Virus record (IMG/VR): IMGVR_UViG_3300005469_000597
Strand: one strand, 5' to 3'
Origin: an uncultured virus (IMG/VR IMGVR_UViG_3300005469_000597)
Taxonomy: Duplodnaviria; Heunggongvirae; Uroviricota; Caudoviricetes
DNA: 64,000 nucleotides
The position numbers were made by a program, and so were the translations under genes. Positions 1,629 through 63,474 of the stretch are shown piece after piece (within the stretch, counting starts at the first letter, position 1; each line of letters starts with the position of its first letter). The notes under the pieces were generated by a model that was not told the DNA's origin, did not search any database, and saw nothing but the letters and a program-made list of their open reading frames with translations.

Positions 1629-1889
1629 CGGTTTTTAATGCAATAAAACAAAACTAATGCATTTTGCACCGCACAAACTCCAATTAATGTTAAACAATCC
1701 CGACCTGTCTTATTTCTACTACAAATTTGTCGTAACTCTGCGGTAAAAAAGAGCCTAAATTGCTGAATGGATTGAATTTCAGGAGGAATAATTAGTAATA
1801 TCATTCAGAGACGGCAAGTTTTGAGCGTTTCCGACAACTCAAAAGCAACCCGTTTCGCTAATTTTATTTCCTGAAAATTGTCCGAAATT

Positions 1890-3065
1890 ATGGCTCTTTT
1901 GAACGCAGTAGTGCTCCAGTCGAAGGAGGTCAAGGGCGGCAGAAACAAAGTAAGAATCTCTGTCGCTCACAACGGCGAGACTCGCTACATCGTAACAGAC
2001 ATTATCCTGAACTCTTCCAAGGAGTTCAAAAAGGGTGCCGTGGTCAAACGGCCAGACGCCACCATCCTGAACGTGAAGATTCGCGGACTACTCCAACGCT
2101 ATCAGTCGGCTCTTGATGAGCTTGACTACATCGACGGCCTGACCTGTCCCGAACTGGTGTTCCAGCTCAAGAACGCCGGAAACTACAAGCACCGTACTCT
2201 CAAATCTATCTACGAGGAGTACATGGAAAAGGCTCACATCAAGTCCGGGACGGCTGCCGGGTATCGCAACATCTGGAGAGTCATCAGTCATCACCTTGGG
2301 GAGAAACTATTGGCCGAGAACATCAATCACGGCACAATCCTCGGCCTCGACAAGTATCTCCGTGGACGTGGCCTCAAACTGACTACCGTCCGCAACTATC
2401 TCGTGTTCCTCATGGTGCTTCTCAACTATGCCAAGCGATGCGGTTATGTGCAGTTCCGTGTCGATCCGTTCTTTGGCTACGAGCTGCCAAAGATGGAAGT
2501 CAGGGAGTCGTGGATTTCCGTCGATGAGGTAAGGCGCATCCGAGACCTTGAAAGCACAAAGCCGAACATCATCAAGTGCCGGGACCTATTCATGCTCTCA
2601 TACTATCTCGGCGGCATCAACATGACCGACCTGCTCGACATCAATTTCAACGAGCAATCCGAAATCATCCACTACGTCCGCAAAAAGACCGAGAATCGTC
2701 CCAAACTGAACAAGTTTGTGGAGTTTCGCATTCCTGATGAGGCCAAGGCAATCATCGCCAAATACAAAGGTTCTGACGGTCGATTGGCCGTAACAAAATA
2801 TCAGCGCACGGACGGTATGCACTGCTTCTTCGATGTGAACATGAGGAAGCTGGCCGAACTGACAGGAATAAAGAACCTGATCTACTACTCGGCGCGGAAA
2901 TCATTCAGTCAGCACGCATTCGACCTCGGCATCAGTACAAGCACAATCGACTACATTCTGGGGCATCGCGTAGACAAAGGAGGTACCTCACTCTACAATT
3001 ATATCTCGGTTACACCGGAAATTGCAACAGAGGCCGTGCGTAAAGTGTTGGATAATCTAAAATAA
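1890..3065 (+). CDS. Tyrosine recombinase / phage integrase (Bacteroidetes type)
   Basis: Arm-binding-like N-terminus, RDLFMLSYYLGGIN, RKKT, YSARKSF, LGH and a C-terminal Tyr; ATG 1890 preferred over TTG 1878. Confidence 0.92.
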   Translation: MALLNAVVLQSKEVKGGRNKVRISVAHNGETRYIVTDIILNSSKEFKKGAVVKRPDATILNVKIRGLLQRYQSALDELDYIDGLTCPELVFQLKNAGNYKHRTLKSIYEEYMEKAHIKSGTAAGYRNIWRVISHHLGEKLLAENINHGTILGLDKYLRGRGLKLTTVRNYLVFLMVLLNYAKRCGYVQFRVDPFFGYELPKMEVRESWISVDEVRRIRDLESTKPNIIKCRDLFMLSYYLGGINMTDLLDINFNEQSEIIHYVRKKTENRPKLNKFVEFRIPDEAKAIIAKYKGSDGRLAVTKYQRTDGMHCFFDVNMRKLAELTGIKNLIYYSARKSFSQHAFDLGISTSTIDYILGHRVDKGGTSLYNYISVTPEIATEAVRKVLDNLK

Positions 3066-3078
3066 AGTGTTAACTTTG
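3048..3078 (+). promoter_or_regulatory. Sigma-A-type promoter overlapping the integrase stop
   Basis: TTG (3048-3050) - 20 bp - TAACTTTG (3071-3078). Confidence 0.7.
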
Positions 3079-3082
3079 CGCT

Positions 3083-3162
3083 ATCAATAATTCCATGAGG
3101 GGTTTATTCCTCCTTGGTTTTATTGGTTTGACTTGGCGAGGGGGTGGTTCCCCTCGCTTTTT
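3083..3162 (+). ncRNA. Predicted small antisense RNA A (5' end approximate)
   Basis: Own promoter, small 5' hairpin, seed GGTTTTATTGGTTTGACTT (3116-3134) complementary to six phage mRNA leaders, intrinsic terminator. Confidence 0.6.
3136..3162 (+). terminator. Intrinsic terminator
   Basis: GCGAGGGG-GTGGTT-CCCCTCGC-TTTTT. Confidence 0.85.
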
Positions 3163-3175
3163 ACTTTCCTCAATT

Positions 3176-3442
3176 ATGATACAGACACTGACAACCGACA
3201 CATCATTTGACAAGTACGAGGAATACCGACTGCACATGGAAACGCTGCTCTCGGCATCGCTGACTGATTTCGATATTCCGGGGCGCATTCTGATACCACT
3301 CGGCGACGCAGGCATACGCCGCCTCCGAGACCTTGTGGCAATGACGAAAAAACAACTTCTCTCGGTCAGCCGTATGGGTGTCGTGTCGGTGGAGTTTTTA
3401 GAGAATTTTCTTGCCAAACAGAATCTCTCCCTGAAGAAATAA
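3176..3442 (+). CDS. Stand-alone RNA polymerase alpha-subunit C-terminal-domain-like protein (88 aa)
   Basis: GRILIPLGDAGIRRLRDLVAMTKKQLLSVSRMGVVSVEFLENFL follows the alpha-CTD pattern R..N.L...GI..L.DLV......LL...N.GKKS..E. Confidence 0.7.
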   Translation: MIQTLTTDTSFDKYEEYRLHMETLLSASLTDFDIPGRILIPLGDAGIRRLRDLVAMTKKQLLSVSRMGVVSVEFLENFLAKQNLSLKK

Positions 3443-3527
3443 CAAAGGGCCGACAATCGCCGGCCCTGGGAGCGCCATCACATCATCATCAACATCATCA
3501 CTGACGCTCCACTCCATATTACTAACA
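3436..3527 (-). ncRNA. Predicted small RNA B (ends approximate)
   Basis: TATTTTCG near-consensus -7 box (3532-3539); 9-bp stem with a 24-nt UGAUGAUG loop (3469-3510); 9-bp terminator hairpin (3446-3467) plus U-rich tail; both stems need G-U pairs that form only on the minus strand. Confidence 0.45.
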
Positions 3528-3553
3528 AGTGCGAAAATAATTTGAGTAAGTAT

Positions 3554-3590
3554 AAAAAATGGCTGCGTTTCACAACGTGGCCATTCTTAT
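3554..3590. terminator. Probable bidirectional terminator ending the lysis operon
   Basis: AATGGCTGCGTT-TCAC-AACGTGGCCATT preceded by an A6 run (U-tract on minus). Confidence 0.65.
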
Positions 3591-3633: not shown

Positions 3634-4176
3634 CTAACCTATAACCTTCCTAATCAGTTTCAGGAACGGTTTCCTGAAGATATACGCTCCGGCGACAAGT
3701 GCGGTTCCTACGAGATACCAGAAGGCCGACAGCTTGAACTGCTCGGATTTGCTCAGCGATTTCTCGACATAGACTGGGTATGGCTGAGGCACCGGGATTT
3801 CTTTTGTCTTGACGGCCTCATTGTTGTTCTCGGTGGTAGTCTGCGGCACATAGGCTTCTCCGCTCAACTTGACATCCTTATTGACGAGGTTGTGAAAGAG
3901 CGTGCCGTCTGACGTGATCCATGCGTCGCTCACCGCTACGTCGGTCTCGATATGGCTGGTGTCAGTCTCAAAGACGATGTTGCTGACGGACTGCTGAGGC
4001 ACCGGCACATCGACCATTACCGGAACATACTCGGTTTTGATGACGGTCTCGACTCGCACACTGTCGGAGTTGTTGAGAACGATAGGTGCCGGTGGCAATG
4101 TCTGTGCAATTTGCTTGTTGGTGTGGCACGATGTCAGGGCAAACGCGGCCACGAGAATAATCAGGAATTTCTTCAT
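3634..4176 (-). CDS. Lipoprotein, probable unimolecular spanin
   Basis: Lipobox ALTSC, beta-rich middle, C-terminal TM helix; last gene of the lysis cassette. Confidence 0.65.
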   Translation of the reverse strand: MKKFLIILVAAFALTSCHTNKQIAQTLPPAPIVLNNSDSVRVETVIKTEYVPVMVDVPVPQQSVSNIVFETDTSHIETDVAVSDAWITSDGTLFHNLVNKDVKLSGEAYVPQTTTENNNEAVKTKEIPVPQPYPVYVEKSLSKSEQFKLSAFWYLVGTALVAGAYIFRKPFLKLIRKVIG

Positions 4177-4179
4177 GGT

Positions 4180-4839
4180 TCAGACGTTTTTATATTCCTC
4201 CCTGGCATTGAAACCGGGGCAAGGTTTATTGGCAAATTCGTTGTGACCGTGGACGGGCGCTTGGGGATAACGCTTGCGCAGTTCTTTGAGCAGATTGAGG
4301 ATGCTCACTTTCTGCGCCGCAGTTCGGGTATCGAGGCCGATGTTTTGCCAGTTCTTTGTGGTGCTGACAGGACAGCCGCCCTCATAGCAGATGCCGATTG
4401 AGTGAGCGTTGTAGCCGCTGGCGTGGCACCCTCTCACGTTCTCCGGGCGGCAGGCAATGATGGTTCCGTCCTTACGGATGTAGTAATGGTAGCCGATATG
4501 CCATCTTCGTCCGTCCTTGATATAAACCGAGAAATTACGCGAATTATGGCAGGCTTCCAGGGTTTCGATGCCAAAATCCATGTCAATGGGCGTGGCTGCA
4601 TAATGTAGAATAATCATATTGATGGTCCGTGTGTCGCGGACTGCGTCGACGGTCTCATAGCCGAGGCTACTCCATGTCTTCGCTCCGGCGATGCCGTCAA
4701 CGGTCAGGCCGTGGGCCTTCTGGTAAGCCTTGACTGCGGCCTCGGTCTTGAGTCCGAAGATTCCGTCAGCGGTGATGCCGAGTTTTGTTTGCAGGGTCTT
4801 TACTTCGGGGCCTCTGCTCCCTCTCTTGATTGTATTCAT
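4180..4839 (-). CDS. Endolysin: peptidoglycan-binding domain + N-acetylmuramoyl-L-alanine amidase (T7-lysozyme-like)
   Basis: DGIFGLKTEAAVKAYQKAHGL; IILH, IGYHY, SIGICYEGG, GHNE..KPCP. Confidence 0.93.
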   Translation of the reverse strand: MNTIKRGSRGPEVKTLQTKLGITADGIFGLKTEAAVKAYQKAHGLTVDGIAGAKTWSSLGYETVDAVRDTRTINMIILHYAATPIDMDFGIETLEACHNSRNFSVYIKDGRRWHIGYHYYIRKDGTIIACRPENVRGCHASGYNAHSIGICYEGGCPVSTTKNWQNIGLDTRTAAQKVSILNLLKELRKRYPQAPVHGHNEFANKPCPGFNAREEYKNV

Positions 4840-5318
4840 TCTATTTCTTCTTTAGAGTCGAGTTCTGAAAGGTCAATGTCGAAATGACGCTCGGTCTTGT
4901 CAACGAGAATTTTCTGCATTACTTTCGCCCACTTGGCACCGTTACAACTGGACTCGTTCTCCAAGATGGACCATAACTGCCAGAAGCAGATTGCTCCGGC
5001 GGCAATCTTGGTCAGGTCGATGGGGAGGCCGTCGGTAATGTTCTGCTGAATGTAGAATGCCACTATCACAAGGAAGTATGATTTCATGAGCGTGATCAGC
5101 ACCTTGCCGAAATGGGAAGATGCGAATTTGTGGCCGTCTTTACGGACTCTTTCGGGATGGGCTTTCTTCACCCTCTTGCCCAGCTGCCACGCCGTGAAGC
5201 AATCGGCCAGAATAAGCAGAGTGCAGATGAGAATGTACGGAAGTGTGGGCTCCAAAACAGCCAGCACGGCTCCGAGCAACGAGAACAGGGAGCGGAAGAT
5301 GTCAGAAACGTTGTGCAT
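4836..5318 (-). CDS. Holin
   Basis: Several TM segments and a SILEN motif; overlaps the endolysin start (ATGA). Confidence 0.8.
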   Translation of the reverse strand: MHNVSDIFRSLFSLLGAVLAVLEPTLPYILICTLLILADCFTAWQLGKRVKKAHPERVRKDGHKFASSHFGKVLITLMKSYFLVIVAFYIQQNITDGLPIDLTKIAAGAICFWQLWSILENESSCNGAKWAKVMQKILVDKTERHFDIDLSELDSKEEIE

Positions 5319-5336
5319 GATGATGATTGATTTTTG

Positions 5337-5600
5337 TTAGACCATTGAAACGAGAGCTCCGACACCTGAACCGAGCAAAGCACCGATAGCGTCGGCAAGA
5401 ATGTCATTCCAATCCCAACGATTGCCGATGGCACATTTGTCACCATACTCCTTGCCTACACCTATTGCGACACCGGCAATCATACCGGCGAGGAATGAAA
5501 GAGGATATGATGCGCCGAAAGCCGACTCTATGACGGCGGCTGCGGCCGACACTATGAAGCACACTGCCAAATGCTTGATTTTATCTGTTTGGATTTTCAT
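5337..5600 (-). CDS. Small membrane protein
   Basis: DKIKH...GKEYGD...WDWNDILADAIG, hydrophobic; ATG 5600 preferred. Confidence 0.7.
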   Translation of the reverse strand: MKIQTDKIKHLAVCFIVSAAAAVIESAFGASYPLSFLAGMIAGVAIGVGKEYGDKCAIGNRWDWNDILADAIGALLGSGVGALVSMV

Positions 5601-6588: not shown

Positions 6589-8019
6589 TCAGGTAAACTT
6601 GTATTTCACTTTGTTTCCGTCAAATACCTCACTTTGGATGACGGTTTCAAATGGAAATCCATCCTCCAGGTCGCTCACCTGATCGAGGATGTTTTTCATC
6701 TCTTCGGACGATGTGAAGAACTTGCCCCACTCGCCTGTCTGGGTATCACGGAACGAAACAAGGTAGCGATCCTCACCGTGAGAAGTGTGCATCTCGCTCT
6801 CGAAATCGTGTATCTCCAGACTCTTGTTCTGGAGTGCGCTCAGTCGCATGACTTTGCCGGGGAACCGCTTCTTGCCGTCGGCCGGCGTAAAGACAATTCC
6901 CATCTCAGAAAATTTCTTCATTTTATGATGTGTTAAGATGTAAAACAAATGTTTGCAATCTGCGTGGCACGCCATGCCCTTGAAAGAGCCGATAATCTGC
7001 TGTCGGCGCTTTCGTGACTTGACCTTTGCAAGTTTCCGGGCCGCGTTCTGTTTCACTCGCTTTCGTATGAGTGAATAGACACGGCCAGTCTTGGCATCTC
7101 GGTAGTGTGTATACCCGAGACAGTCAAGACCCTCAGTCATCGGCCGGACTGCGTAATTGGGTTTTACCTGCAAGCCGAGCTTGCTCACCTCATCCATATA
7201 GATGTGCATAAGCCTCCATGCCTCCTTCTTATTGGGCGCGAGGAAATCAGTATCATCACAATAGCTGTAATACAGATAACGCACCTCGACGGTGCCATCA
7301 GGATATGACAGCATATAGTGAGGAACCTCTTGGAGCATACGATGATGAACCGGGTTGAGGTAAAGATTGGCGAGACATTGAGAGGAACGCAGTCCTTTGG
7401 AGAGTCCCTTTGGCATCAAGGTTATGAAGCGGTCTATGATTTTGAGCAGAATTTGGTCTGAAATGAAAGTACGGATTGTTGCTTTCATACCCTCTTGGGG
7501 GATATTGTCATAATATCCCACTATATCGGTCTGCCCATAGCACTGACTCATTTCAGGTGCAGCCACTAAATCGTCTTCTAAGATATGGTGGAGCCAGTGC
7601 ATACCACGGCCTTTGATACTGGCCGCCGTGTTCTTTATGAGTGCCGGGCGCGTGTACTTCTCAACGACAACCATAATGGCATTGATGCCTATACGCTTGA
7701 TAATGTTAGGAGCTTGCACGTCCCTCTCCTTGGGCCCATCCTTAACATGAATATCCTGAACATCAGCACGAGTGATTGAAAATTCACCCGTCTCTATCTC
7801 ACGTTTTAGAATATTATAGACCCTATCCCTCCATGCGTAATAACGATTCCAGCGCTCCTGAATCTGAGGGTCGCTGTCATCAAGAGTTTTATCTGGCCGG
7901 AACCTATCGCGTTGGTGCTTGCATTCGAGATGATCGATTACATAGTCTATGCTTGCGTATAAGTTCTCCCGGCTGACAATCTCGGGGATAAGATTGTCAA
8001 GAGGATATTCTATCTCCAT
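6589..8019 (-). CDS. DGR reverse transcriptase with a ~110-aa C-terminal extension
   Basis: KERDV, ASIKGRG, DIVGYYDNI, GLSKGLRSSQ, YCDD, LDCLGY; adjacent TR/VR pair. Confidence 0.95.
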   Translation of the reverse strand: MEIEYPLDNLIPEIVSRENLYASIDYVIDHLECKHQRDRFRPDKTLDDSDPQIQERWNRYYAWRDRVYNILKREIETGEFSITRADVQDIHVKDGPKERDVQAPNIIKRIGINAIMVVVEKYTRPALIKNTAASIKGRGMHWLHHILEDDLVAAPEMSQCYGQTDIVGYYDNIPQEGMKATIRTFISDQILLKIIDRFITLMPKGLSKGLRSSQCLANLYLNPVHHRMLQEVPHYMLSYPDGTVEVRYLYYSYCDDTDFLAPNKKEAWRLMHIYMDEVSKLGLQVKPNYAVRPMTEGLDCLGYTHYRDAKTGRVYSLIRKRVKQNAARKLAKVKSRKRRQQIIGSFKGMACHADCKHLFYILTHHKMKKFSEMGIVFTPADGKKRFPGKVMRLSALQNKSLEIHDFESEMHTSHGEDRYLVSFRDTQTGEWGKFFTSSEEMKNILDQVSDLEDGFPFETVIQSEVFDGNKVKYKFT

Positions 8020-8183
8020 AGCCTTCAGGGCTCTTAGTTATGTTCCGGCTTTCTCCGGACTGATGTCCGCAAGGGTTGCCGAGGCTCGAACTTCTCGCCT
8101 CTTTCATCGTCATACATGACAGTCGCAGGGTGGCGATTATATAACAAAAGGCGACTATTCGCCTCTATTATAGTCCTCAATGT

Positions 8184-8293
8184 CAGCCGCACGCCGTTGT
8201 TCGTGTTCGCGTTCGAGGCAGCGTTGTTCGCATTGACGTACGCGAGACCGTAGTTCGCGTTCGCATTGTTGCCGGCGCGCCGGGGCAAACGGC
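8184..8293 (-). repeat. DGR template repeat (TR), 110 bp
   Basis: Ungapped match to 8498-8607; 25 adenines on minus strand (11 AAY codons, 2 TAC, 1 ACG). Confidence 0.97.
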
Positions 8294-8452: not shown

Positions 8453-11400
8453 TTAGGCCGCTTGTACGATGACGATTCCGTTCTTCTTTCTGAAGGCCAG
8501 CCGCACGCCGTAGCACGTGTTCGCGTACGAGGCAGCGTAGTTCGCATAGACGCACGCGAGACCGAAGTACGCGAGCGCATAGACGCCGGCGCGCCGGGGC
8601 AAACGGCCTCTTGAATGAGAATACCACTGCGCATCAGCATAGTTCTGGTTCCACTGCGTTTTGTCATTAGTAAGCCTTGATGCTATCATGTCGCAGAATC
8701 TGCCATGCTTAGTTCGGCCGATACAATAGTCAGTGGCGTTTAGACCCTGAACGACACGCTCGGTACCAGTAAGCATATTGTAGATATGCCACTTGGCATC
8801 AATCGGGAATGATGCGTCGTTGTCGCTGTACTTGCCCTTACGCCAGTCAATGAACGTAGAGATGTTGATACCTACGCAATCCATAGCCTCATAGCAGCAC
8901 GCAACATAGTTCTGTAAACCAAACAGAATATTACCGAGATGTCCGGTTGAGGTACCGAATCGGGTAATGTTGCCTAAGTCATTGGCTCCGTTGGCACCGG
9001 TCGTATAAGCATGAGTACAACCGTATCCACACTTTGCCTGAATGTCGCGATCGCCGACGATGCCGTAGGTGATTTGTGCAAGGTCACAGTTCATCTCATA
9101 GTCCTCGGCCTGGAAACCCTCGCCGCGCATACGGCAAAGGTTGATGAGGTCAGCCGATGAGTAGTGCATGGTTGATGTTGGCACTGTTGTGTTGGTCAAG
9201 TTGCCGTTGGAGTCATACGCCCACTCTGAATTGGTGGAGTGATTGTCATCTCCTCGACGAACAGCCGCACCACTTATGGAACGTATCCTCATCAGCGCAT
9301 CGAGAGAACCGCCATACACACCGAGAAGGTATTCGTCAACCTCCACCCAATCGGGTTCGATGGCCTCGATAGCGGAGCTGTCAACGGCGATAGCCTCCTG
9401 GTCGTCGAATCCCTTTGGCGACGTGAACACGAACTTCTTTGCTCCTTTGGGCACATCAATAAAGATGTAATCGCCAAGTGTGAAGTCGAAGAGCGAGTTG
9501 CTGACGCTCATATTGTACTTCGAGATGACTTTACCGTCCTCGTCAAGGAATACCGCGCCTATCTGAGCATTGTTAAGACCGGGCCAACGCACCTGCTTCA
9601 TGCCGTCAACATCAATGGCATAGACATTCATGTTGGGGTTGTCGGTAAGCGCGCAGGTGCCACCGGCCACAACATCAGTCGTAACGATTGCCGATAACTC
9701 CTTAACCAAGATCTGCGACAGCTTTTTGCGGATGCGGCGCAGTGTGCCGTCGGCATTGAGTGCGCAGGTTGAAAGCGGCTCGGTTGACAACATTGAGAAA
9801 CAAGTGTATTTCAACTGGTTCTTGTAGTCATTGATACCCTTATAATGGTGCTTGGGAATGTGCTTCATCACATCAAACCCCTCACCTGACATATCAGAGG
9901 GGTCATAGGAGGAGCCGTCGGCGAGCAACGCATAATTGCTGTCGCTGATAGGAGTACAGTACATCTTCCCGTCAGTGGCGTTGAGAGCAGCTTTCATAGC
10001 GTGGCTCCGCTGAACCATCAGTTGCCAGTGCGCCGGTACGGTGTAGGTGTTGTTAAAACGGTACCCAGTGCTGTCATCCATGTTGGAGATATTCTCGGTG
10101 TCAGGCTCTACATCGGAATAGCAGATAGTAGAATACTGCGAGTTGTGGATGTCGAGTGCCGGGAAATACGCCTTGAACGCAGAGAGTTGTGCATCAGTAA
10201 CAAGGTCGGTGAATATCCATCGTCCTGTAACGCCGGAACACTTGCCGGTCTCGTCGTATGCCTGTCCGGTGGGGTCAAGGCCGATGGCTCCGCTCGCTTT
10301 CAGAGCAGAGAGCGTTGCAGAGGGAGCTATGATGTTCACATCCGGCAGACGGAGATAACGAATGTTGGAGGCCGATATAATTCCGTTGATAAGGCTCATC
10401 GGGTCGATGTCGGGACATCCAGCTAACATCAGACGGTTCACGTTGGCCATGCTTGCGATTGTCAGGCCGCCGGGATAAGATAGTTTGGGCAGGTTCACGA
10501 GGTTGAGTTCTGTCATGCCGGCAGGCAGTTCGAGAGTCTCAATCGGCGAGGTCTCGGCAAGTCGGATAGTGGTGAGGTCCGAGCCGGAGGCCAGTACGGT
10601 CTCAAGTCGTGGGCAACCCTCGGCGTTGATAGTGGTTATCTCCGTGTTGCGCACGTCGAGATGCTTCAGGAACGGAAGGTCGCCGAGGTTCATCTGCTGG
10701 AGAAATCCCGTATTGCCTGGCGACAGCGTCCAATTCGTCTTGTGGTTGAGTGAGCCGATGACGATTTTCTCGGCCAATCTCATCTGCGAGAACTGGAAAT
10801 TCGGGTCAAGCGAGATTTCCGATAGGTCTATCTCGCTCATCTGGTCGGCCTGATAGATGTAGAGCAGCACATTGTCGCCGTGCTGGAACTGTGTGAACAC
10901 CCCGGTCTCTCCGGCTTTGAGGTACATTCCTTGCGTAACATTACCACCGTCATTACCGATACCGAAATACCCGTCTTTGGCGGCCTTGAACGTAATCTTG
11001 GCACCAGTCTTGGCTCCGATACGACCGCCGAGAACGTGCGAGGCATCCTTGAAGTCGCCCGTCTGATAGTAGCCGTCGCGGACACGCCAGCGTTGCTGTA
11101 TGAAGGCAGGGAGCGACTGTCGGCCGGAACCGTGCAGGGCATAGAAATAGATGTCGTTGTATAGCTCGGAATACTTGATGTATTTGCGCTCACAGTCGTA
11201 GGTGCAGACCACTTTCGGCCACACCTCAATTCTGTTCTTGACGAAATAGTAGAGTGCGCCCTGTGGCGAGAACGGCCCTGCGCCGACTCCCTCTATTTCG
11301 GGGAGGTTGCGCATGGTATTCACCACGCCGGGGAGAGTGAGGGTGTTGCCGCTTGCATCGCATACCATTTCCTGATTTGAGCAACGGCGCAGATTGTTCC

Positions 11401-14400
11401 AAAGGATAGAGCCACGGCCGGCGTAACACTTTTCATCCTCTTCCGGGTTGAGGTCGGCAGGAATGGTGTTGCCGCCGTCGTTGTCCTTGCCGTTGCAGGT
11501 ATCGCAGTCGTACACTTTATTCTCGTACATCCGTATGGGTTCCATAGCGGAAGGAGATGTATAGACACCGTTCTCAACGGAGCAACCGCCCTCAAGGAAG
11601 AACATAGGCTGCATATTCTTTGCTTGCTGGTCCACGGCGGCGAGGAAATCTGTAAAGGCATAGTAGGCGTTGAGCGAATGTGCGCTCATGTACTTCCATG
11701 CGTTCTGTTTCCAGATGCCTTGCCATGTGTCGGCAAGTGACTCTTTCGAGTAATCGCACGAGTTGCAGAACCTGAGAACATTGAACAGCTCAAACGGAAC
11801 CTTGCGACCCATTGCGAGGTCTTCCTGAAGATGATCGTCATCAATCATGCACTCGAAATACTGTGTCCATGCCGGATAGGTAGGCTGGCCGAGGCTCAGC
11901 TTCTGAACCCACGAAGATGCGGTGGTGGTGGGCGCCATCATGTCGTCGATACCGCCTACTCCCATAAACCAGTCCATGCCGTCGTAGGTGATGAGTTCGT
12001 AGCCGCTGACAGGATTCAGCACATCGCCTGAAATGACCCATTGGCCGTTGACTTGTTTCATTGAGCCGGGAGCCACTGCCCACTCGCCGCCGCTGTACCG
12101 CATGAATTTATAATCGCGGCCGCAATACTGCGAGAGCAGATAGAGTTTCGATGTGTCAAGCCCCTCGGTGGTCTTGAACCGGGCCACGATTTCAGCGAGA
12201 GTCTCCTGCTTTACGAAGTGGCCGTTGCTGTCGAATGTGGCCTTGCCGAAGAACTCTATGAAGTCTCCATAATTCCTGCACCCCTTGTTGTATCCGGGCG
12301 TGTCCATGAATCCGAGCGCAACCTGCTCCCCTTTGTCCTCTTTCCAGTTACCGCGTGCATGGAACCAGGCATCAGTCAGGCTCTCGTTGGTGGCGCGGAA
12401 CGCGGCAATGGGATGGTTGGCCGTGGAGTGGTTCATTTGCAATCCGGTGACGGTTATATCGCCTTTCTTCCATGTGCCGTCAAAGGCACGTTGCGCCGGA
12501 GTGAGATAGTTGTTGCCGAGGGCACGGAACGTGGCGTTCATCATATCGCACACTCCGCAGTCATTCGCCATCGAGGAATCCGAGTAGTCAACCTTGACGG
12601 TGATGATTGCAACCGGGATGGTGTTCTGGCCGACGCGGATATAGTTCTGCGCGAACAGCTCGTAGGTCTTGAGTGCGTCAGTGTTGGTGTAATCGGGATT
12701 GAGTGCCGTAATGACGGTTGGATTGGCCTTGTCGACAGGCTTACGGAGATAAAATCTATCGTTCTTAATGGGCCTCTTGGCCGAGGTGGTACCCTGACGG
12801 CGCCATTGCACATTGGTAGCCTTGAACGACCTCCACGGCATTGTCGGGTGGAAATAGAACAGCGTGCAGTTGAACTTGGTCGATGTATTGATGTCGGAGT
12901 CAAAGCTGTCGAATGTGGCCTGAGATGCGACAACTACATAGTAAGGGAAGCCCTTCTCTTTGAGCTGCTGCATCGAGGGGCGGTTCTGATTATCGAGAAC
13001 ATTCTCTGCATCGTACTCGGCAATCATCGCGTCGGTGTCGGTCAGTTTGCAGAGGTAATTGTCGAAAGCTTGTGCCCACTCGTAATAGGTATCATAGGCC
13101 ATCAGATAGTAGAGGTAGAAATCGGCATCGGTGCCGTCGAAATCTATCTCTTTCTGATTGAGGATTGCGCCGGAGTTGGAGACATAGCCGATAGTGCCTA
13201 TCTCCTCGCCGTCCATGTAGAGCTTGATGTTGGAGTATTCGGTGGTACCGCGCAGATGGCTGATGGTCGAAGGCTCTACAACAAGTCCGACGGTGTGCTT
13301 CTCTCCGCACTTGAACGAGCGTGTAATTGTACCTGGTGTACCCGTCTTGCAGTTCACGACTATCTTATTGCCGCAGATATAGAATCCGGCACCGCTGTCA
13401 GGGTCGTAGCACTCCATCAGTTTGGCCTCGCTGTCCTTTACGTTGTTAGTCGCAAAGGCGAATTGCAGAGCCATACCGTTGGTGCGCTCGGTGGCCGACA
13501 ATGCGAAAGGTGCGTATGGCAGGTGAGCCTTGACATTCTCGGCAATGCGCAGGGCTGTCTCACCGAGGTACGGACGGAATCCGTTGGATGACCAGTTGGA
13601 GCCGACAACGCTCAGTACATAGCTTCCGTCGCTGATGGTGTGGTCGGCCTCATCATTGGAGCGCGTGGCGAAGTCGAGGCCGAACAGTGCGCCACTCTTG
13701 ATTGCGGCGGCAATCGCGGAGCCTTGAACTGTAACCTCGATGGCTTTGGACTGTACGGACGCGCTCCGGGAGTAGCAGCTGATTTTCTTGGTGCCGTCGG
13801 CAGCGTATCCGTTGATCTGCTTGCGGACGGTGTAGGTCTGGCCTATCTGACATTCAAGAGTCGTGGCTTTCTGTCCGTCGATATAGACATCGGCCGAGGT
13901 GGAGTTTTTGCCGGGAGTATAGGCGGCCACTTCGAGAACGAGCGTGTCATACAGACGGATGGAGCCGTTGTTGGTGTCGTTGAAGCGCATGGCCACTATC
14001 GGCGTGGAGGACTCCGGATCCACGCACATCACGGCAGTATAGAACTTGTTGCCGGTAACGCCGGAGGCCACATCCTCACCCCAGAAGCGAATGGGATATG
14101 AGCCGTGGGTCATCTTCTCGTTGCCCCCAAGTACATTGTTAGGGTTAATGGAGATAGAGTGCGTGTAGTTGTCGGTGATGATTGCCGTGCCCAGGCTCTT
14201 CCACTCGCCGCCGATGAATATCTCGGTGTAGGCTTTCACGCCCTGCTTGCTTACGTTGTTCGGGAACTTGTAGAGGCTGATGTTCTTGACGCTCCCGCCG
14301 ACTTCAAGAGAGTTTCGGGTATAGTTCAACGCCTGCTCACAAGTAACAGTAACATCGACAGCCGTAACGGTCACGGTCTTGCGGCGCACGTTGCCGTCGG

Positions 14401-16852
14401 CATCATAGGCCACTATGGTGAAATCGCGGGCGGCAGCCTCGCTGAAATATGGCGTAAAGTCGAATGTGAACGAGTAATTGGTGGCAGAGGTTGATGAGTT
14501 CTGGTTGACAGCCTCGCTCAGGAGCGTGATGCCGGAGGTGGTGTCTACTATTTCGACGCGGCGGATCATGTTCAGTATCTCGGTCTCGCCCTCATAGGTG
14601 ACGGAACGGATAGCGGCACGGAGTATGATGTCGGAACCGAAAGCGGCATAGACGGAGGACTCTTCAGGAATGATTGAAAGAGTCGTGCCGCCGGCCTGAC
14701 CGCTGCCGGTGCTCTTGGGTAACTTGATGGAGTCGCCCATCTCCTTGTCGCTCTTGCTTACGGCCTTGATGATGTAGTGTTCGGCGTCCTGCTCCAGTTC
14801 CATGTGGTCGAAGGCGGCCTGAGCCATATCGTAGGCGCCGCCCGTGGAGAAGGCATCTTTGCCGCCGGAGGCAGGGGTATCTTCCGTCTTGACGGCACCA
14901 CCGCCGCCGAAAGACTTCCAGAGGTCTTTGCTTGAAAGGTCGGTGGCCTGACCGGTGAACTGATAAGTCTCCCATCCGTACTCGCTGGCGCGGAAAGTGA
15001 TTATCAGACCGCCTTTCGAGTAGTCGATGCTCGATGACTGTATGTAGGAAAGTAGCGCGTCAATGGCGGTGTCTTTGGTATAGTAACCGGCCACGGCCCG
15101 GGGAACGAGTTCGTCGATATTGATTATGGCCTCAGACCCGGCGCTCATGCCGGCGAGGTCAATCCAGTTGTCGATGTTCTTGAACTGGCCTTCGGTGTCG
15201 TTCACTCCGACGTACTGATAGGACTTCCATGTGCGCGGGCCGATGGCGAATGTGATTTGCAGACCGACAGAGGCCACGCCGTGCTCAAATACGGCGGTCA
15301 GTACATTGTGAGTCTGCGCCTCGGCCTTGATATCGGAGTAGTATTCGCCGGTCGGCAGAGGTATTTCTACGGTGGCGTTGAATGTGTTGCCGACGGCGGA
15401 GCCGGACAACGGCATCATCTTGCCGTCTACGACATGGAACAGCTCTGACTCGCATCGATAGATGTTGTCGGGGTTGGCCGTCATGTCGGAGTTGTAGATT
15501 TCCTCGTACCATCCTTTCATCTCGAAAGTAGAGTTGCCGAAACAGCGGAATCCGGCACCGTCCTCATCATTGGGGCAATAGTAGATGCCACTCGTCGGGG
15601 CGGTGCCTGTACCGTCCCATATACCGTCAAAGGGCAATATTTTTACACCGAAGATTTGGTTTTCGAGGTCTCTGGCTTTGGACTGGAGAGCTGCGCCCTC
15701 GTCGCCGGGGAAGGCCGAGGATGCAGTGTGGCCGAGAGCGAGGTCGGAACCGATTGTGACGAGTTCAGAACCACTCCAGCGGTATGTTTTGTTCGATGAG
15801 GTGCAGGTATAAATCTTGCCGCTGTCAGGAGTACGCCCGTCAATCGTTGCGTCCTCTCCGAAACTGTCTGCATCGAGCCAATTATTGTAGTAGGTGAACT
15901 GACCGACGATGATGATAGGTTCTCCGGTGGTGTCCTCAATCTGCCAGAACTCGCCCGCAAGTTCTCCGAGCTGATACTTGGAGCCAATATTTCCGCTTAC
16001 AGTAGTCTGAGTCGTGATGTCTCCGACGCTCTGTGCTTTGAGCGTCCTTACAGGACGAATGACGGTACCCCAGTTCTCGGCGGTGTCAATGGTTCGTTTC
16101 GCTACGGCGAGAAGGAATCTGTTCTTCTCGGTATCATACACGACCATACAGCCTGAATCGGTGGATTTATGGATTGAAGATGCCATCTGCGGAGTAACGC
16201 CGCTTACCATAGCATTGAACTCTACGACATCATCGACATATCCGGGCAACTGTGCAGCCGGAACCTTGCCGCCGCTGTCAAGCGTGGCGAGGCCACCGGG
16301 TTGTCCTTTGGTGTCGGTTACAGCCTTTGCCGCATTGGCGGTACTTTGAGCTGCTGCCGCAGCAGAGCTGGCCGCATTAGCGGTGTTTTGGGCGCCGGTG
16401 GCTGCTGACCTTGCCGCGTTGGCGGTGTCCTGGGCGGCATTTGCCTTGGAGATTGCGGTCTGCCCATTGTCATAGGCTGTCTGAATCTTGACCTTATCCA
16501 AAGCAGTGATGATACCGGCCTTTGCAGAGGTAGCAACCGGCACGTTGCATGAAATGGTTGTACCGGCTGACTTGATAGTGAGCGTCGCGGTACTTTCTCC
16601 TACATCGAATGATACCGATTTCAGTACATTCTTTCCGATGAGTGTTCTCAACGAGTCCTGATCAGAAGATGACATGGACGCGATGAGGTCTCTCAGAACA
16701 GTGTACGATACTTTGCGACCCCCGTTTAACTCGAACCAGTCGTTAGAGCCGAGCGTCGTCTGTGGCGTCAGCTGCTCTATCGTCTTGGAGTTGGTACGGA
16801 GAGACGAAAGTACGGCATCGAAGATTGTCTGTTGTTCTTGTGTTAATGCCAT
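8453..16852 (-). CDS. Giant DGR target protein, probable tail fibre/adhesin (LamG-like, CotH-like and LRR regions; C-terminal C-type-lectin-like VR domain)
   Basis: 2799 aa at the end of the tail module; QGTTSAKRPIKN and YDCDTCNGKDNDG motifs; LxxLxL repeats; VR at the C-terminus. Confidence 0.85.
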   Translation of the reverse strand: MALTQEQQTIFDAVLSSLRTNSKTIEQLTPQTTLGSNDWFELNGGRKVSYTVLRDLIASMSSSDQDSLRTLIGKNVLKSVSFDVGESTATLTIKSAGTTISCNVPVATSAKAGIITALDKVKIQTAYDNGQTAISKANAAQDTANAARSAATGAQNTANAASSAAAAAQSTANAAKAVTDTKGQPGGLATLDSGGKVPAAQLPGYVDDVVEFNAMVSGVTPQMASSIHKSTDSGCMVVYDTEKNRFLLAVAKRTIDTAENWGTVIRPVRTLKAQSVGDITTQTTVSGNIGSKYQLGELAGEFWQIEDTTGEPIIIVGQFTYYNNWLDADSFGEDATIDGRTPDSGKIYTCTSSNKTYRWSGSELVTIGSDLALGHTASSAFPGDEGAALQSKARDLENQIFGVKILPFDGIWDGTGTAPTSGIYYCPNDEDGAGFRCFGNSTFEMKGWYEEIYNSDMTANPDNIYRCESELFHVVDGKMMPLSGSAVGNTFNATVEIPLPTGEYYSDIKAEAQTHNVLTAVFEHGVASVGLQITFAIGPRTWKSYQYVGVNDTEGQFKNIDNWIDLAGMSAGSEAIINIDELVPRAVAGYYTKDTAIDALLSYIQSSSIDYSKGGLIITFRASEYGWETYQFTGQATDLSSKDLWKSFGGGGAVKTEDTPASGGKDAFSTGGAYDMAQAAFDHMELEQDAEHYIIKAVSKSDKEMGDSIKLPKSTGSGQAGGTTLSIIPEESSVYAAFGSDIILRAAIRSVTYEGETEILNMIRRVEIVDTTSGITLLSEAVNQNSSTSATNYSFTFDFTPYFSEAAARDFTIVAYDADGNVRRKTVTVTAVDVTVTCEQALNYTRNSLEVGGSVKNISLYKFPNNVSKQGVKAYTEIFIGGEWKSLGTAIITDNYTHSISINPNNVLGGNEKMTHGSYPIRFWGEDVASGVTGNKFYTAVMCVDPESSTPIVAMRFNDTNNGSIRLYDTLVLEVAAYTPGKNSTSADVYIDGQKATTLECQIGQTYTVRKQINGYAADGTKKISCYSRSASVQSKAIEVTVQGSAIAAAIKSGALFGLDFATRSNDEADHTISDGSYVLSVVGSNWSSNGFRPYLGETALRIAENVKAHLPYAPFALSATERTNGMALQFAFATNNVKDSEAKLMECYDPDSGAGFYICGNKIVVNCKTGTPGTITRSFKCGEKHTVGLVVEPSTISHLRGTTEYSNIKLYMDGEEIGTIGYVSNSGAILNQKEIDFDGTDADFYLYYLMAYDTYYEWAQAFDNYLCKLTDTDAMIAEYDAENVLDNQNRPSMQQLKEKGFPYYVVVASQATFDSFDSDINTSTKFNCTLFYFHPTMPWRSFKATNVQWRRQGTTSAKRPIKNDRFYLRKPVDKANPTVITALNPDYTNTDALKTYELFAQNYIRVGQNTIPVAIITVKVDYSDSSMANDCGVCDMMNATFRALGNNYLTPAQRAFDGTWKKGDITVTGLQMNHSTANHPIAAFRATNESLTDAWFHARGNWKEDKGEQVALGFMDTPGYNKGCRNYGDFIEFFGKATFDSNGHFVKQETLAEIVARFKTTEGLDTSKLYLLSQYCGRDYKFMRYSGGEWAVAPGSMKQVNGQWVISGDVLNPVSGYELITYDGMDWFMGVGGIDDMMAPTTTASSWVQKLSLGQPTYPAWTQYFECMIDDDHLQEDLAMGRKVPFELFNVLRFCNSCDYSKESLADTWQGIWKQNAWKYMSAHSLNAYYAFTDFLAAVDQQAKNMQPMFFLEGGCSVENGVYTSPSAMEPIRMYENKVYDCDTCNGKDNDGGNTIPADLNPEEDEKCYAGRGSILWNNLRRCSNQEMVCDASGNTLTLPGVVNTMRNLPEIEGVGAGPFSPQGALYYFVKNRIEVWPKVVCTYDCERKYIKYSELYNDIYFYALHGSGRQSLPAFIQQRWRVRDGYYQTGDFKDASHVLGGRIGAKTGAKITFKAAKDGYFGIGNDGGNVTQGMYLKAGETGVFTQFQHGDNVLLYIYQADQMSEIDLSEISLDPNFQFSQMRLAEKIVIGSLNHKTNWTLSPGNTGFLQQMNLGDLPFLKHLDVRNTEITTINAEGCPRLETVLASGSDLTTIRLAETSPIETLELPAGMTELNLVNLPKLSYPGGLTIASMANVNRLMLAGCPDIDPMSLINGIISASNIRYLRLPDVNIIAPSATLSALKASGAIGLDPTGQAYDETGKCSGVTGRWIFTDLVTDAQLSAFKAYFPALDIHNSQYSTICYSDVEPDTENISNMDDSTGYRFNNTYTVPAHWQLMVQRSHAMKAALNATDGKMYCTPISDSNYALLADGSSYDPSDMSGEGFDVMKHIPKHHYKGINDYKNQLKYTCFSMLSTEPLSTCALNADGTLRRIRKKLSQILVKELSAIVTTDVVAGGTCALTDNPNMNVYAIDVDGMKQVRWPGLNNAQIGAVFLDEDGKVISKYNMSVSNSLFDFTLGDYIFIDVPKGAKKFVFTSPKGFDDQEAIAVDSSAIEAIEPDWVEVDEYLLGVYGGSLDALMRIRSISGAAVRRGDDNHSTNSEWAYDSNGNLTNTTVPTSTMHYSSADLINLCRMRGEGFQAEDYEMNCDLAQITYGIVGDRDIQAKCGYGCTHAYTTGANGANDLGNITRFGTSTGHLGNILFGLQNYVACCYEAMDCVGINISTFIDWRKGKYSDNDASFPIDAKWHIYNMLTGTERVVQGLNATDYCIGRTKHGRFCDMIASRLTNDKTQWNQNYADAQWYSHSRGRLPRRAGVYALAYFGLACVYANYAASYANTCYGVRLAFRKKNGIVIVQAA
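8498..8607 (-). repeat. DGR variable repeat (VR), 110 bp
   Basis: 14 mismatches to TR, all at TR adenines; lies near the end of the 2799-aa ORF. Confidence 0.97.
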
Positions 16853-20407: not shown

Positions 20408-20740
20408 TTAGATTGTGCAGATGAGGTTCTCAATCTTGAAGCAACGGAAGGAGTTTTTCTCGGTGTCGAAGTAGGCCATAGTCTTGTAGGAGGGCTTGGT
20501 CACTTTCTTGCCGCCGAGGGTGGCACCGGCAGGAAGATTTTTGAGAGTACCCATAGCCTTGCGGATGGTGCCGTCGGCTTTCTCGTAGTAGAATGTTACC
20601 ACTCCCTCGCGCATGGCTTTTGCAAGCCGGTAGAGCTGCCACGCTTTTATCATGCAGATGCGCCACTGCTGTTTGGTGGCACGCCAAAGCTGCCATGCGT
20701 ACTTCATCACTCTTGCTCTAAAATTGATTTTCTTTTCCAT
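20408..20740 (-). CDS. SH3-fold / DUF2693 (WYL-like) protein
   Basis: VTFYYEKADGTIRKAMGTL...YFDTEKNSFRCFK. Confidence 0.7.
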   Translation of the reverse strand: MEKKINFRARVMKYAWQLWRATKQQWRICMIKAWQLYRLAKAMREGVVTFYYEKADGTIRKAMGTLKNLPAGATLGGKKVTKPSYKTMAYFDTEKNSFRCFKIENLICTI

Positions 20741-20748
20741 GATTATGG

Positions 20749-20888
20749 GGTTTTATTGGTTTGACTTATGTTCTCGTAAGGTGTTTTAGTATCTCCCTTA
20801 CACCTGTAAAGTTAGGGCACGAAAACAGATATTGCAAACAAAATAACCACCATTTAATCACCATTTTACCGCCTTAACATTTACTGAC
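20749..20888 (-). promoter_or_regulatory. Phage promoter/leader cassette copy 1
   Basis: AAATGGTG x2, TTTG-N20-TAACTTTACAG, leader AAGTCAAACCAATAAAACC. Confidence 0.8.
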
Positions 20889-21368
20889 GTTTATGCCAAT
20901 ATGTGTCAAGGCTTCGCGGATGCGCTTGCGTCCGGCAAAGAGCCTGCTCCTGATTGTGGCCGGGAGTGCGTCCATCATTTCGGCTATCTCGCTGACAGTA
21001 TAGCCATCGACAAAGAGCTGCACACATCGGACGCTGTTGAACTCCTCGGCCAATTCCTCTATGGCACCCCGGACAATGGATGCTTGTACCTCCTCTTCGG
21101 GAGTCAGGACCATAGGCGCGTCATAGTCCAACAACGGCAGGAACTCGATACGCTTCTTCCTGCTCAGCTGCGTGAACCGCAGATTATACATGATTGTCTG
21201 CGCCCAGGGCCGGAACTCACGTTGTGTGTCAAACCGTGAGCCGCTTTCAAGTATCCTGAGAACGGTGTCGGCAACAAGATCCTCGGCATCATACTCGTTA
21301 TAGCATAGCCTGCGGGCCTTGGCAAACAGCCATTCATAATTCGATATGACAAGGTTTTCAATCTTCAT
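20874..21368 (-). CDS. ECF-type RNA polymerase sigma factor
   Basis: DAEDLVADT (region 2), FRPW, GYTVSEIAEMM..TIRSRLFAGR (region 4 HTH). Confidence 0.85.
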   Translation of the reverse strand: MKIENLVISNYEWLFAKARRLCYNEYDAEDLVADTVLRILESGSRFDTQREFRPWAQTIMYNLRFTQLSRKKRIEFLPLLDYDAPMVLTPEEEVQASIVRGAIEELAEEFNSVRCVQLFVDGYTVSEIAEMMDALPATIRSRLFAGRKRIREALTHIGINVSKC

Positions 21369-21589
21369 CGGCGCGGCTTTCGAGATGGGAAGGTCTCTCG
21401 GAAGCGTTGCGCTTCTTTAATGGCCTGGGCTTTCATTCGCCGGGCCTGAAGGTGCATGAGGCTGATGGTCCGGTCTAATTCCTTTTCTTCGGCTCGTGGA
21501 CGGAGCAGGGCGAGTATCGTATCGCACTTGCGCTCTATGCGTGCAAGTCGTTTCCTACTGTGTTGATAATGGGGGTTGTCTTTTTTCAT
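21365..21589 (-). CDS. Hypothetical basic protein
   Basis: 74-aa ORF overlapping the sigma start (ATGA). Confidence 0.6.
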   Translation of the reverse strand: MKKDNPHYQHSRKRLARIERKCDTILALLRPRAEEKELDRTISLMHLQARRMKAQAIKEAQRFRETFPSRKPRR

Positions 21590-46374: not shown

Positions 46375-46809
46375 TCAGTAATTGGAAACTGAAACTATTA
46401 TCCAATCGTTAGAGAGTATATCGGTCTGCGAGGCGAGCCATCCCGACAGAACTTCTCCATGTTCCGTGAACATACAGATTGTACCGAGGGCCGGGACCTC
46501 ACCGCCCAACTTTTCTACAACAGTGCGGAGAATGGGGTCTTTGCACCACTCTGCTTTGATGATGCCGGCAGGCTTGAGCCATAGGAATGACCCAACACTC
46601 CAGTCTTTACGTGCCACTTTGCAACCGCGTTTGAGTTTCTCGATAGCCTGACCGAAAGTAAGGTCTTCGGATAACCCATCGCCATTGGCTCCAATATGGT
46701 AGCCGTAGATTACTGAGGTTTGGATAAGGTCCTCAGCTGCCTTTGCCTCGGGATTGGCATACACAACGCCTCTTGCGTGTTCTTCTGCCAAAAATTCAAG
46801 ATTTGCCAT
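46375..46809 (-). CDS. DUF2829 / Thoeris anti-defence Tad2-like protein
   Basis: TFGQAIEKLKRGCKVARKDW ... GWLASQTDILSNDW. Confidence 0.8.
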   Translation of the reverse strand: MANLEFLAEEHARGVVYANPEAKAAEDLIQTSVIYGYHIGANGDGLSEDLTFGQAIEKLKRGCKVARKDWSVGSFLWLKPAGIIKAEWCKDPILRTVVEKLGGEVPALGTICMFTEHGEVLSGWLASQTDILSNDWIIVSVSNY

Positions 46810-47438: not shown

Positions 47439-47502
47439 CTGTAAAGGTAATTCAGATGAGCAAGAGATGCAATCAGATTGAACACCATTTTTACACCATT
47501 TT
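47439..47502 (-). promoter_or_regulatory. Phage promoter cassette copy 3 (no leader motif)
   Basis: AAATGGTG x2, ATTG-N20-TACCTTTACAG. Confidence 0.75.
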
Positions 47503-47520: not shown

Positions 47521-48276
47521 TCAGAATTTGAACTGTGCCGTGATATTGTACTGGACGAGTTGCTTGGTCTTGTCCTTGCCGTTGTTGGTGGCGCCTTTGA
47601 GGTTGATGCTGTCACCGAAATGCTTTTTGATGAACAAAATGCTCCGGCGCTCCTCGTCCTGGTTCCTGAAGGCGGCCAGCCCTCCAGCATTGACAAAGGT
47701 GCCTTTCTGGGCGAAATTGTAGCGCAAGTCGGTGAGGATTCTGCGCTCTTTGTATTTCATGTAGCAGCTTATCCAAAAGTCCTCTTTGAGCCGGATTTCC
47801 TCGTTCCACCATACGTTCTTGTTGTAGCGGACACCATACGCGCAACCGGTGATCATCTTCATCAGCGAGTAGTAACCCCACTCGTTATACATCACCGGGG
47901 AGATTGCCGAGGTGAAGCCGAACAGGTGAATATCGAGCATACACGCCAACTCATACAGCGACTCGATGATGCGGGTTATCTCGTCGGGGTCGCGGATTAC
48001 GCCCGGCTCTCCTTTCTCGACAAAGAGCGTCTTGACGACATGGACGTCATCGTCAAGCATCATAAGATTTCCGAAATGCCGGGCCATCCAATTTCGTTTC
48101 GGTATCAGGCCTATCACATCATCAGGGTGCGTCACTATCTCGCACTCCGGATTGTACTCCCGATAGATGTCTGCCTGACTCTCGGCCACGCAGATGATAG
48201 GATTGTTAACGAGTTTCTTTGAGAAAACTCGGTCGTGCCGCTTGTGGGAGGGTATGACAATTTTCAGGTCGCTCAT
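47521..48276 (-). CDS. GT-A fold glycosyltransferase, GREB1/TET-associated-like
   Basis: IVIPSHKR, MMLDDD, KEDFW, NAGG. Confidence 0.65.
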   Translation of the reverse strand: MSDLKIVIPSHKRHDRVFSKKLVNNPIICVAESQADIYREYNPECEIVTHPDDVIGLIPKRNWMARHFGNLMMLDDDVHVVKTLFVEKGEPGVIRDPDEITRIIESLYELACMLDIHLFGFTSAISPVMYNEWGYYSLMKMITGCAYGVRYNKNVWWNEEIRLKEDFWISCYMKYKERRILTDLRYNFAQKGTFVNAGGLAAFRNQDEERRSILFIKKHFGDSINLKGATNNGKDKTKQLVQYNITAQFKF

Positions 48277-48929: not shown

Positions 48930-48975
48930 GACTAAACATCATCATTAAAACATCATCATTAGCCACACACGAAAC

Positions 48976-63186: not shown

Positions 63187-63474
63187 TTATCTTTTTTTCT
63201 TTCTAGTATTCCGACAATGCCTCAAAACCTGGGCGGCGTTACAGAACCATTTACCGTTCTGCGCCTCGGTCGGCTTTGTTGCCTCTATCTTTCCGGCGGC
63301 GATAAGGTCTGTGAGCTTCTTTTCGCCTCCGACAATGTGCATGGCGTCCTTCTTGCCAAATGTAAAGTCAGACATTATTGTGAGTATATTCTCCAATAAA
63401 ATAGCCGAGGGATCTACGGCATTGATTTGACCTCTTCCCATAGGCTCTACTTTACTCTTGCGACATAGACGCAT
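63187..63474 (-). CDS. Small basic, possibly excisionase-like protein
   Basis: KKDAMHIVGG..LIAAGKI..NGKW pattern; start uncertain. Confidence 0.5.
   Translation of the reverse strand: MRLCRKSKVEPMGRGQINAVDPSAILLENILTIMSDFTFGKKDAMHIVGGEKKLTDLIAAGKIEATKPTEAQNGKWFCNAAQVLRHCRNTRKKKR

Follow-up and report, generated by a model that had tools for sequence, protein, structure and literature searches.

A stand-alone homologue of the RNA polymerase alpha C-terminal domain in a temperate phage and in satellite-like elements, with a possible role as a transcriptional decoy

The C-terminal domain found in the alpha subunit of RNA polymerase (alpha-CTD) is a textbook domain. In E. coli, its 261 determinant contacts sigma4 and lambda CI, its 287 determinant contacts CRP, and N294, G296 and K298 belong to the 265 determinant. 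This UP-element determinant also includes R265, N268, C269 and S299 (PMC1874639). Stand-alone alpha-CTD proteins are on record as 'hypothetical protein' (NF005841/PRK07758) and as an ESM Atlas cluster of 63 members, half of them viral; they have the free state of the domain in common with the protein described here, and we found no function on record for them. The free alpha-CTD-like protein SP15_291 of Bacillus phage SP-15 is only distantly related (40% over 62 aa, E 7e-3). Anti-activators that work at alpha-CTD or sigma include B. subtilis Spx ('anti-alpha'), T4 AsiA, and SaPI PtiA and PtiM acting against LtrC. The outcome in these systems, an activator kept from RNA polymerase, and the disturbance of helper transcription by satellites resemble what we propose below, but they bind polymerase or activator with unrelated folds, whereas the proposed decoy would copy the polymerase domain itself. 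In lambda, CII activates int and an antisense RNA. The locus studied here likewise places one promoter type before the integrase and before an antisense RNA directed against lytic leaders but, as read from the sequence, would differ in using a phage ECF sigma factor, two trans-acting RNAs and a free alpha-CTD. A full-text literature search, mostly of papers available outside subscription, had, among the matches listed, nothing relevant on a characterised phage-encoded or stand-alone alpha-CTD, or on this phage circuit or its satellites. Free copies of the domain are unnamed in databases, and the satellite copies and their link to an ECF sigma cassette are new.

The window analysed here is the whole 64,000-nucleotide stretch of the uncultured virus record IMGVR_UViG_3300005469_000597, and is mostly one temperate prophage. 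A tyrosine integrase gene (1890..3065, + strand) stands at the left prophage end beside a host ychF-like GTPase gene, and is followed by lysis genes, a reverse transcriptase and genes for tail, capsid, portal, terminase and replication functions. In the nearest genome (G001) the right prophage end lies about 2.4 kb beyond the window, past an HTH gene and ahead of a host gene. No att repeat of at least 10 nt was found between the two presumed prophage ends, and a terminase search of INPHARED gave no named phage relative. The promoter consensus, the best alpha matches and the rat or mouse gut labels on several runs point to a Bacteroidales-type host. Elsewhere in the window, the layout of a diversity-generating retroelement occupies 6589-8138 (-) and 8453-16852 (-), with a reverse transcriptase, the RT-3 RNA of Rfam and a tail protein of 2799 aa that has a 3' end similar to the intergenic template; 7798-8248 in this region is spanned by an RNA contig. 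A Tad2-like anti-defence domain (46375-46809, -) and a TET-associated glycosyltransferase sharing 79-92% identity among relatives (47521-48276, -) were also noticed.

The ORF at 3176..3442 (+) encodes 88 aa and was identified through profile, structure and alignment as a stand-alone alpha-CTD homologue with a Bacteroidota-type helix preceding the CTD. The only profile that it matches is PF03118, with a score of 25.0 bits where the cut-off is 23.8. The best matches in a PDB sequence search were residues 243-318 of two Bacteroidota-type alpha subunits of 330 aa (E 1e-7 and 4e-5), namely chains 8dkc_A and 9n9p_A, the 8DKC entry being Porphyromonas gingivalis RNA polymerase. The data statement and text of the 9N9P structure paper name Flagellimonas taeanensis RNA polymerase. 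The AlphaFold2 model (pLDDT 81) has the alpha-CTD fold, four helices with a helix-hairpin-helix, plus an extra helix at residues 13-26; among the Foldseek matches listed there were RNA polymerase entries only, Spx/alpha-CTD complexes included, and the rmsd to isolated alpha-CTD chains was 2.2-2.7 Å. An alpha-NTD is absent, the frame being bounded by stops, and the RpoA model TIGR02027 gave only 28.7 bits against a cut-off of 227.8, with the N-terminal dimerisation/assembly domain missing. An intact 330-aa rpoA is present elsewhere in G001. A 115-aa gene call starting at 3095 was dropped because its 27-codon upstream extension is not conserved, and an antisense ORF (3070-3456) was dropped as a codon shadow. 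The earlier note, made from the letters alone, had described an 88-aa ORF of alpha-CTD pattern without an alpha-NTD, and both points are borne out. When set beside the host alpha-CTD (RpoA ~243-320 of 8dkc_A and 9n9p_A; E. coli 256-316), the phage protein has the same fold, an ungapped alignment, the core residues, R265, G296, the acidic position 261 and the Bacteroidota-type pre-CTD helix. Unlike the host domain, it has no NTD or linker to anchor it to RNA polymerase, its N268 and C269 are replaced, its loop is variable, and it is a free copy borne by phages and satellites while the host rpoA stays intact.

We recovered 40 close homologues at 62-100% identity, and about 35 of the best 150 representative matches were short distant homologues. 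Length, start and motif are conserved over 32-100% identity. In nine of 14 homologue pairs (9 of the 10 that yielded a value) dN/dS was 0.04-0.21; three of the others were saturated, one had no synonymous change, and one near-identical pair gave 1.18 on five changes. The adjoining integrase and holin had values of 0.02-0.08. Thirty-five of 36 aligned members match rpoA models, while PHROG profiles placed the window protein in no family and gave a marginal match for one of the 36. A quick tree, built with no outgroup, split 56 family sequences from 27 host alpha-CTDs by a branch of support 99, and the rows closest to the host carry an intermediate helix 1. Judged from these comparisons, the gene derives from the 3' end of a Bacteroidota rpoA that was captured long ago. 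It was found in 8 of 151 genomes of the family of G001 and in 2 of 401 genomes across the order, one more being unresolved. Scanning GTDB with the family alignment gave one match, which was unrelated, and a weak search among longer proteins gave nine distant multi-domain proteins and no fused member of the family. Second matches in G025 and G227 fall inside long frames. A weak alpha-CTD match also lies in a 139-aa open frame at G337:C30:4447-4629 (L381), and an unrelated phage protein (L100 5596-6204) carries, by eye, a sigma4-like segment and an alpha-CTD with an intact NFGRKS loop.

Residue numbers were fixed by ungapped alignment of the family profile to E. coli alpha 256-316. Positions 261, 265, 268, 269, 294, 296 and 298 are all invariant in the 27 host alpha sequences. 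Among the 56 family members, neither N268 (I in 35, C in 9) nor C269 (P in 37) occurs at all; R265 is kept in 51 and G296 in every one. R occupies position 294 in 29 members and N does so in eight; position 298 is K or R in 19, with GKK in two, and S or A stands at 299 in 46. Position 261 is D in 50 members and acidic in 52, position 287 is variable across the family, and the pre-CTD helix carries E16 and H20 in 49 of the 49 rows covering that part. The net charge of the CTD is +4 in the window protein and +2.3 on average in the family, against +0.4 in the host. Of the UP-element residues, the window protein has lost N268, C269, N294 and K298 and retained R265, G296 and S299. The earlier note had placed the change in the DNA-contacting loop. 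NFGKKS does align to RMGVVS here, but the loop varies within the family; since K or R298 survives in 19 members and GKK in two, while the invariant change lies in helix 1, RMGVVS is a subclade state. On this alignment the family-wide change is in helix 1, where N268 and C269 have given way to mainly hydrophobic residues, with the 294-299 loop drifting. UP-element binding would thereby have been lost in the family, and DNA binding by its members is unlikely, though the domain stays mildly basic and the window protein keeps R265, G296 and S299.

A Bacteroidota primary-sigma -7 box (TAnnTTTG, consensus from PMC7366714) lies at the end of the integrase gene (3071..3078, +), is conserved in relatives, and is the predicted promoter of sRNA A and, via read-through, of the ORF. 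The predicted sRNA A (3083..3165, +) comprises an antisense seed (3116-3134), a terminator hairpin (3135-3158) and a U-tract. The likewise predicted sRNA B (3440..3513, -) is convergent on the ORF, and has a hairpin, two UGAUGAUGU repeats and a terminator at 3446-3467. Conservation places a putative ECF-type promoter for sRNA B at 3519..3544 (-), with a degenerate -35 in the window; another lies upstream of the integrase (1773..1798, +) and is also found in G407, G549, G551 and G552. In relatives the element reads GAAC-N16-TAGTAA and lies ahead of sRNA B; five phages also have it before the integrase. Its pattern is not enriched over shuffles in a genome-wide scan, so only its placement before integrase and sRNA B is informative. 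Neither flanking RNA reaches an Rfam gathering threshold, the best E being above 1.

The integrase is directly upstream of the alpha-CTD gene in 26 of 30 loci, the four exceptions being two with an inserted gene pair (one including a Panacea antitoxin gene), one in which the contig start is too near, and one satellite. sRNA A, with its -7 box, an invariant TTATTGGTTTGACTT-type seed and a hairpin with invariant GGGTGGTTCC, was present in 22 of 23 distinct loci, and the convergent sRNA B in 21. The position that the earlier note had given the ORF, between two predicted sRNAs and behind the sRNA A terminator, is thus conserved together with the terminator and U-tract. Loci picked by their integrase carried the alpha-CTD gene in 5/5 cases. 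Records picked by ECF sigma carried it in 6/39, but most of them say little, since no more than 6/39 included the integrase; five of those six had the gene. Separately, a Panacea-type antitoxin and a second gene were seen by the integrase or lysis end at L060 409-1361, L008 1-773 and L065 1894-2855.

None of 21 leaders tested has a -7 box between the terminator and the ATG, so that expression of the ORF needs read-through, in agreement with the earlier note. No antiterminator fold was found, whether the sRNA seed was blocked or free; since the terminator is strong, output of the ORF may be very low. U-tracts are slightly poorer ahead of the ORF, with a mean of 5.9 vs 6.8 T in 8 nt, a comparison of 34 and 20 distinct terminators that stem from two clades, and so are not independent, and that include 3 misparsed rows of 54. 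Contigs from RNA runs of three studies match with zero mismatches at 3128-3563 (X5), 3320-3511 (X12) and 3395-3580 (X10), and X5 spans the sRNA A termination point; such contigs give neither strand nor level, may stem from DNA, and come from runs chosen on this region. RNA contigs are lacking over the lysis genes (3711-5516 in X5), a gap from which we draw no conclusion.

A 19-mer that has the sRNA A seed as its reverse complement gives 6 matches vs 0.02 expected. This complementary 19-mer lies 4-9 nt before the start codon in five phage leaders (20749, 44126, 45475, 54262 and 61767, all -), three of which sit behind boxed promoters. sRNA A is common to both phage clades and its terminator sequence is invariant. 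sRNA B is complementary to ACAUCAUCA in the leaders of the terminase small subunit, DUF4417 and PUR-like genes, its target leaders lying at 36789, 39955 and 62774; equally, ACATCATCA, complementary to sRNA B, occurs 14 times in the window vs 0.75 expected and is found in three leaders. The UGAUGAUGU repeat was also seen in sense orientation in a leader at 48936-48958.

The class of phage promoters with tandem boxes, proposed in the earlier note, is supported by motif counts, with 11 copies of AAATGGTG in the window vs 2.4 expected. Tandem AAATGGTG boxes with 11-bp spacing lie upstream of a -33 element at 20848..20866 (-), and similar boxes at 45562, 47483-47501, 54338-54356 and 61844. The boxes stand at about -45 to -60, ahead of a non-consensus -7 box. 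A WYL_2 (PF10902) gene (20408..20740, -) has both a boxed promoter and an sRNA A target leader, and is also part of the satellite cassette. The gene of the phage ECF-type sigma factor (20874..21368, -), a candidate partner of the alpha-CTD protein, lies within the tail region of the phage and has a homologue that directly precedes the alpha-CTD gene in satellites; a 74-aa gene overlaps its start (21365..21589, -), and a short ORF is likewise placed in both phage clades and in satellites. The ECF-type element before the integrase and sRNA B, together with the phage-encoded sigma factor, suggests that the latter may act in a CII-like way, driving both. A 95-aa protein conserved in both clades (63187..63474, -), Xis-like by eye and with no Pfam match, is a candidate for the box-binding activator. 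Among the phage genes tested, none co-occurs exclusively with the alpha-CTD gene in helpers and satellites. WYL_2 was rejected as unique partner because it is present in 3/5 genomes lacking the alpha-CTD gene, and the short ORF before ECF sigma because it is found in both clades; the PUR-like gene was above cut-off in 0/4 gene-less genomes but was not detected in satellites. Complex prediction of residues 7-88 of the alpha-CTD protein with the window ECF sigma scored 0.00 and gave no answer. WYL_2 is 74-89% identical across phages with far more diverged structural genes, and its Sm-like fold could, speculatively, make it an RNA chaperone for the sRNAs.

A sister phage clade of mostly human-gut records, with an integrase 35-40% identical, retains the integrase, sRNA A and the following ECF-type promoter. 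The alpha-CTD gene occurs in 0/44 of its loci with the motif (48 fetched) and in 0/5 near-complete genomes. Boxed promoters, target leaders of sRNA A and ECF sigma are all present in the four sister genomes that were read whole. When metagenomes were scanned by motif, 21/76 loci with enough sequence (80 fetched of 118) had the gene behind sRNA A. Relative to an older RNA circuit, the gene is thus a clade-specific gain or else a loss. The earlier note had proposed that sRNA A and the alpha-CTD protein form a two-layer lock on one regulon. The RNA layer is supported by its complementarity to five leaders, three of them boxed, but the second layer is not a necessity: because the sister clade keeps boxes, sRNA A and ECF sigma without the gene, the gene is an accessory layer and not a required lock.

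The second carriers of the gene are satellite-like. The first was G498, in which the gene lies on an element of ~11 kb that lacks a capsid gene but has an integrase of its own and Xis-like, helicase and primase genes. A search with the G498 copy found the gene in 10/401 genomes, among them seven loci of this type in six genomes (L082 1603-12826; L113-L118). These putative satellites were compared with a PICI-like layout (a size of ~8-12 kb, a place at a tRNA gene, genes for an integrase, an Xis-like protein and a primase/helicase, and none for a capsid), with gene content taken from BLAST and by eye in four fully read elements. In all seven loci the co-oriented cassette runs WYL_2, ECF sigma, a short ECF-promoter RNA with terminator, alpha-CTD gene; each has a tRNA gene, which adjoins the alpha-CTD gene in five. 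All seven have a -7 box (one with a mismatch) whose end lies 4 nt ahead of the ATG, and this equals the spacing from the -7 box to the conserved sRNA A start, which suggests that the satellite alpha-CTD mRNA is leaderless and constitutive. Leaderless mRNAs make up ~3.7% in B. thetaiotaomicron (PMC7366714). The four fully read elements have no AAGTCAAACC leaders and at most one box. In four of the seven loci, pairing of the satellite spacer RNA with helper sRNA B exceeds that of shuffles (~2 to 2.7 sd), and the spacer RNA is possibly a sponge there; the other three show no such excess. One satellite copy is truncated to 71 aa (L113), and the C-terminus of the L059 copy is frameshifted or divergent. 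The satellite copies suggest a previously undescribed helper-satellite conflict in gut Bacteroidales.

The alpha-CTD protein is probably regulatory. We put a little less than even confidence in its being a soluble decoy that draws off an alpha-CTD partner and so damps lytic transcription. In the lysogen, sRNA A would be made from the primary-sigma promoter at the integrase end, and some polymerases would pass its terminator to give a little free alpha-CTD, low and constitutive. This would fill the surface with which a phage transcription factor binds alpha-CTD, the candidate factors being the activator of the boxed early promoters and the ECF sigma machinery, and leaky lytic transcription would be damped alongside the translational blocking by sRNA A. 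Satellites would have acquired the gene with the WYL_2/short ORF/ECF sigma cassette and their own promoter box, and their copy would probably interfere with or tune the helper phage. A decoy is favoured because the gene shares its promoter with an RNA aimed at early leaders, because the boxes sit where alpha-CTD and activators act, before a non-consensus -7 box, and because box-less satellites lose nothing by titrating the helper's activator. There is a precedent in vitro, since free alpha-CTD competes for partners in trans, stripping NusA-NTD and NusA-AR2 from lambda Q (PMC7171158).

That precedent also fits an unlikely alternative, in which the free domain binds host NusA as a sink or switch and shifts termination or antitermination at phage terminators, maybe its own. 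Free E. coli alpha-CTD binds NusA-NTD and NusA-AR2 (KD 8 µM for AR2) and releases NusA autoinhibition (PMC7171158), the host's NusA, of 418 aa, carries past the NusA core an acidic C-terminal extension that is AR-like by eye, and a host target would explain the lack of an exclusively co-occurring phage gene; the poorer U-tracts where the ORF follows point the same way. The same paper, however, restricts AR domains to E. coli and some gamma-proteobacteria, and a host factor that is abundant and essential seems hard to titrate with the product of a read-through transcript. Ranked below this is a nucleic-acid binder working through the helix-hairpin-helix, as a weak repressor or architectural protein, for instance at -40 to -60 of phage promoters or at the attachment site. 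The largely retained R265, G296 and S/A299, the frequent change of N294 to R, the more basic charge than in the host and the constant place beside the integrase in helpers argue for it, against the helix-1 replacements that make DNA binding unlikely. Lower again we place a positive ECF sigma co-factor, which would bridge or stabilise the ECF holoenzyme at the promoters of the integrase and of sRNA B and thereby directly favour lysogeny. The gene is directly downstream of the ECF gene in 7/7 satellite loci, an ECF-type promoter lies upstream in both element types, the acidic 261, able to contact sigma region 4, is kept in 50/56, and the L100 protein joins the two kinds of domain by eye; but the sister clade has the same promoter type and ECF sigma without the gene, and the weak search of longer proteins gave no sigma-fused family member.

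A defence against superinfection, in which the protein is bait for enzymes or inhibitors that incoming phages aim at alpha-CTD, is improbable and ranks below those readings. T4 Alt and ModA ADP-ribosylate R265, the one DNA-face residue kept here. Cleavage of alpha-CTD triggered by Rac likewise indicates that phages attack the domain (PMC7552054). The gene is last before the tRNA gene in 5/7 satellite loci, the usual site of accessory cargo, and some loci have an insertion of defence-type cargo close by, such as the Panacea antitoxin gene. Its fixed place in a regulatory RNA module, beside the ECF cassette, nevertheless fits a regulator better, and slow evolution (dN/dS about 0.1) with loss of the native helix-1 surface is unlike a faithful bait. 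We give almost no credence to a non-functional relic or chance frame: the gene is absent from the sister clade and damaged in L113 and L059, but its length, start and motif are conserved at 32-100% identity, the dN/dS of 0.04-0.21 largely refutes this reading, and the overlapping antisense frame is open in only 10/23 loci.

What keeps Bacteroidales prophages dormant when they lack a complete CI repressor is described as an open question (10.64898/2026.06.25.734096). As a whole circuit, we would offer only tentatively, and with more doubt than assent, a lysis-lysogeny switch of Bacteroidales temperate phages made of a phage ECF sigma factor (for integrase and antisense RNA), two multi-target sRNAs and an anti-activator that is a piece of RNA polymerase, from which satellites would have taken the sigma factor, an sRNA B sponge and the free alpha-CTD to steer the helper. 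Being small and conserved, and part of a defined circuit whose promoters and RNA targets are predicted, the alpha-CTD gene makes the decoy idea directly testable. Its partner would reveal alpha-CTD binders in Bacteroidota, where the domain is unresolved in one RNA polymerase structure paper, and the satellite copies and their ECF sigma cassette link widen the list of possible partners. If the decoy reading is true, a free alpha-CTD acting in trans would be a new block to activation, in which the polymerase is mimicked and not bound.
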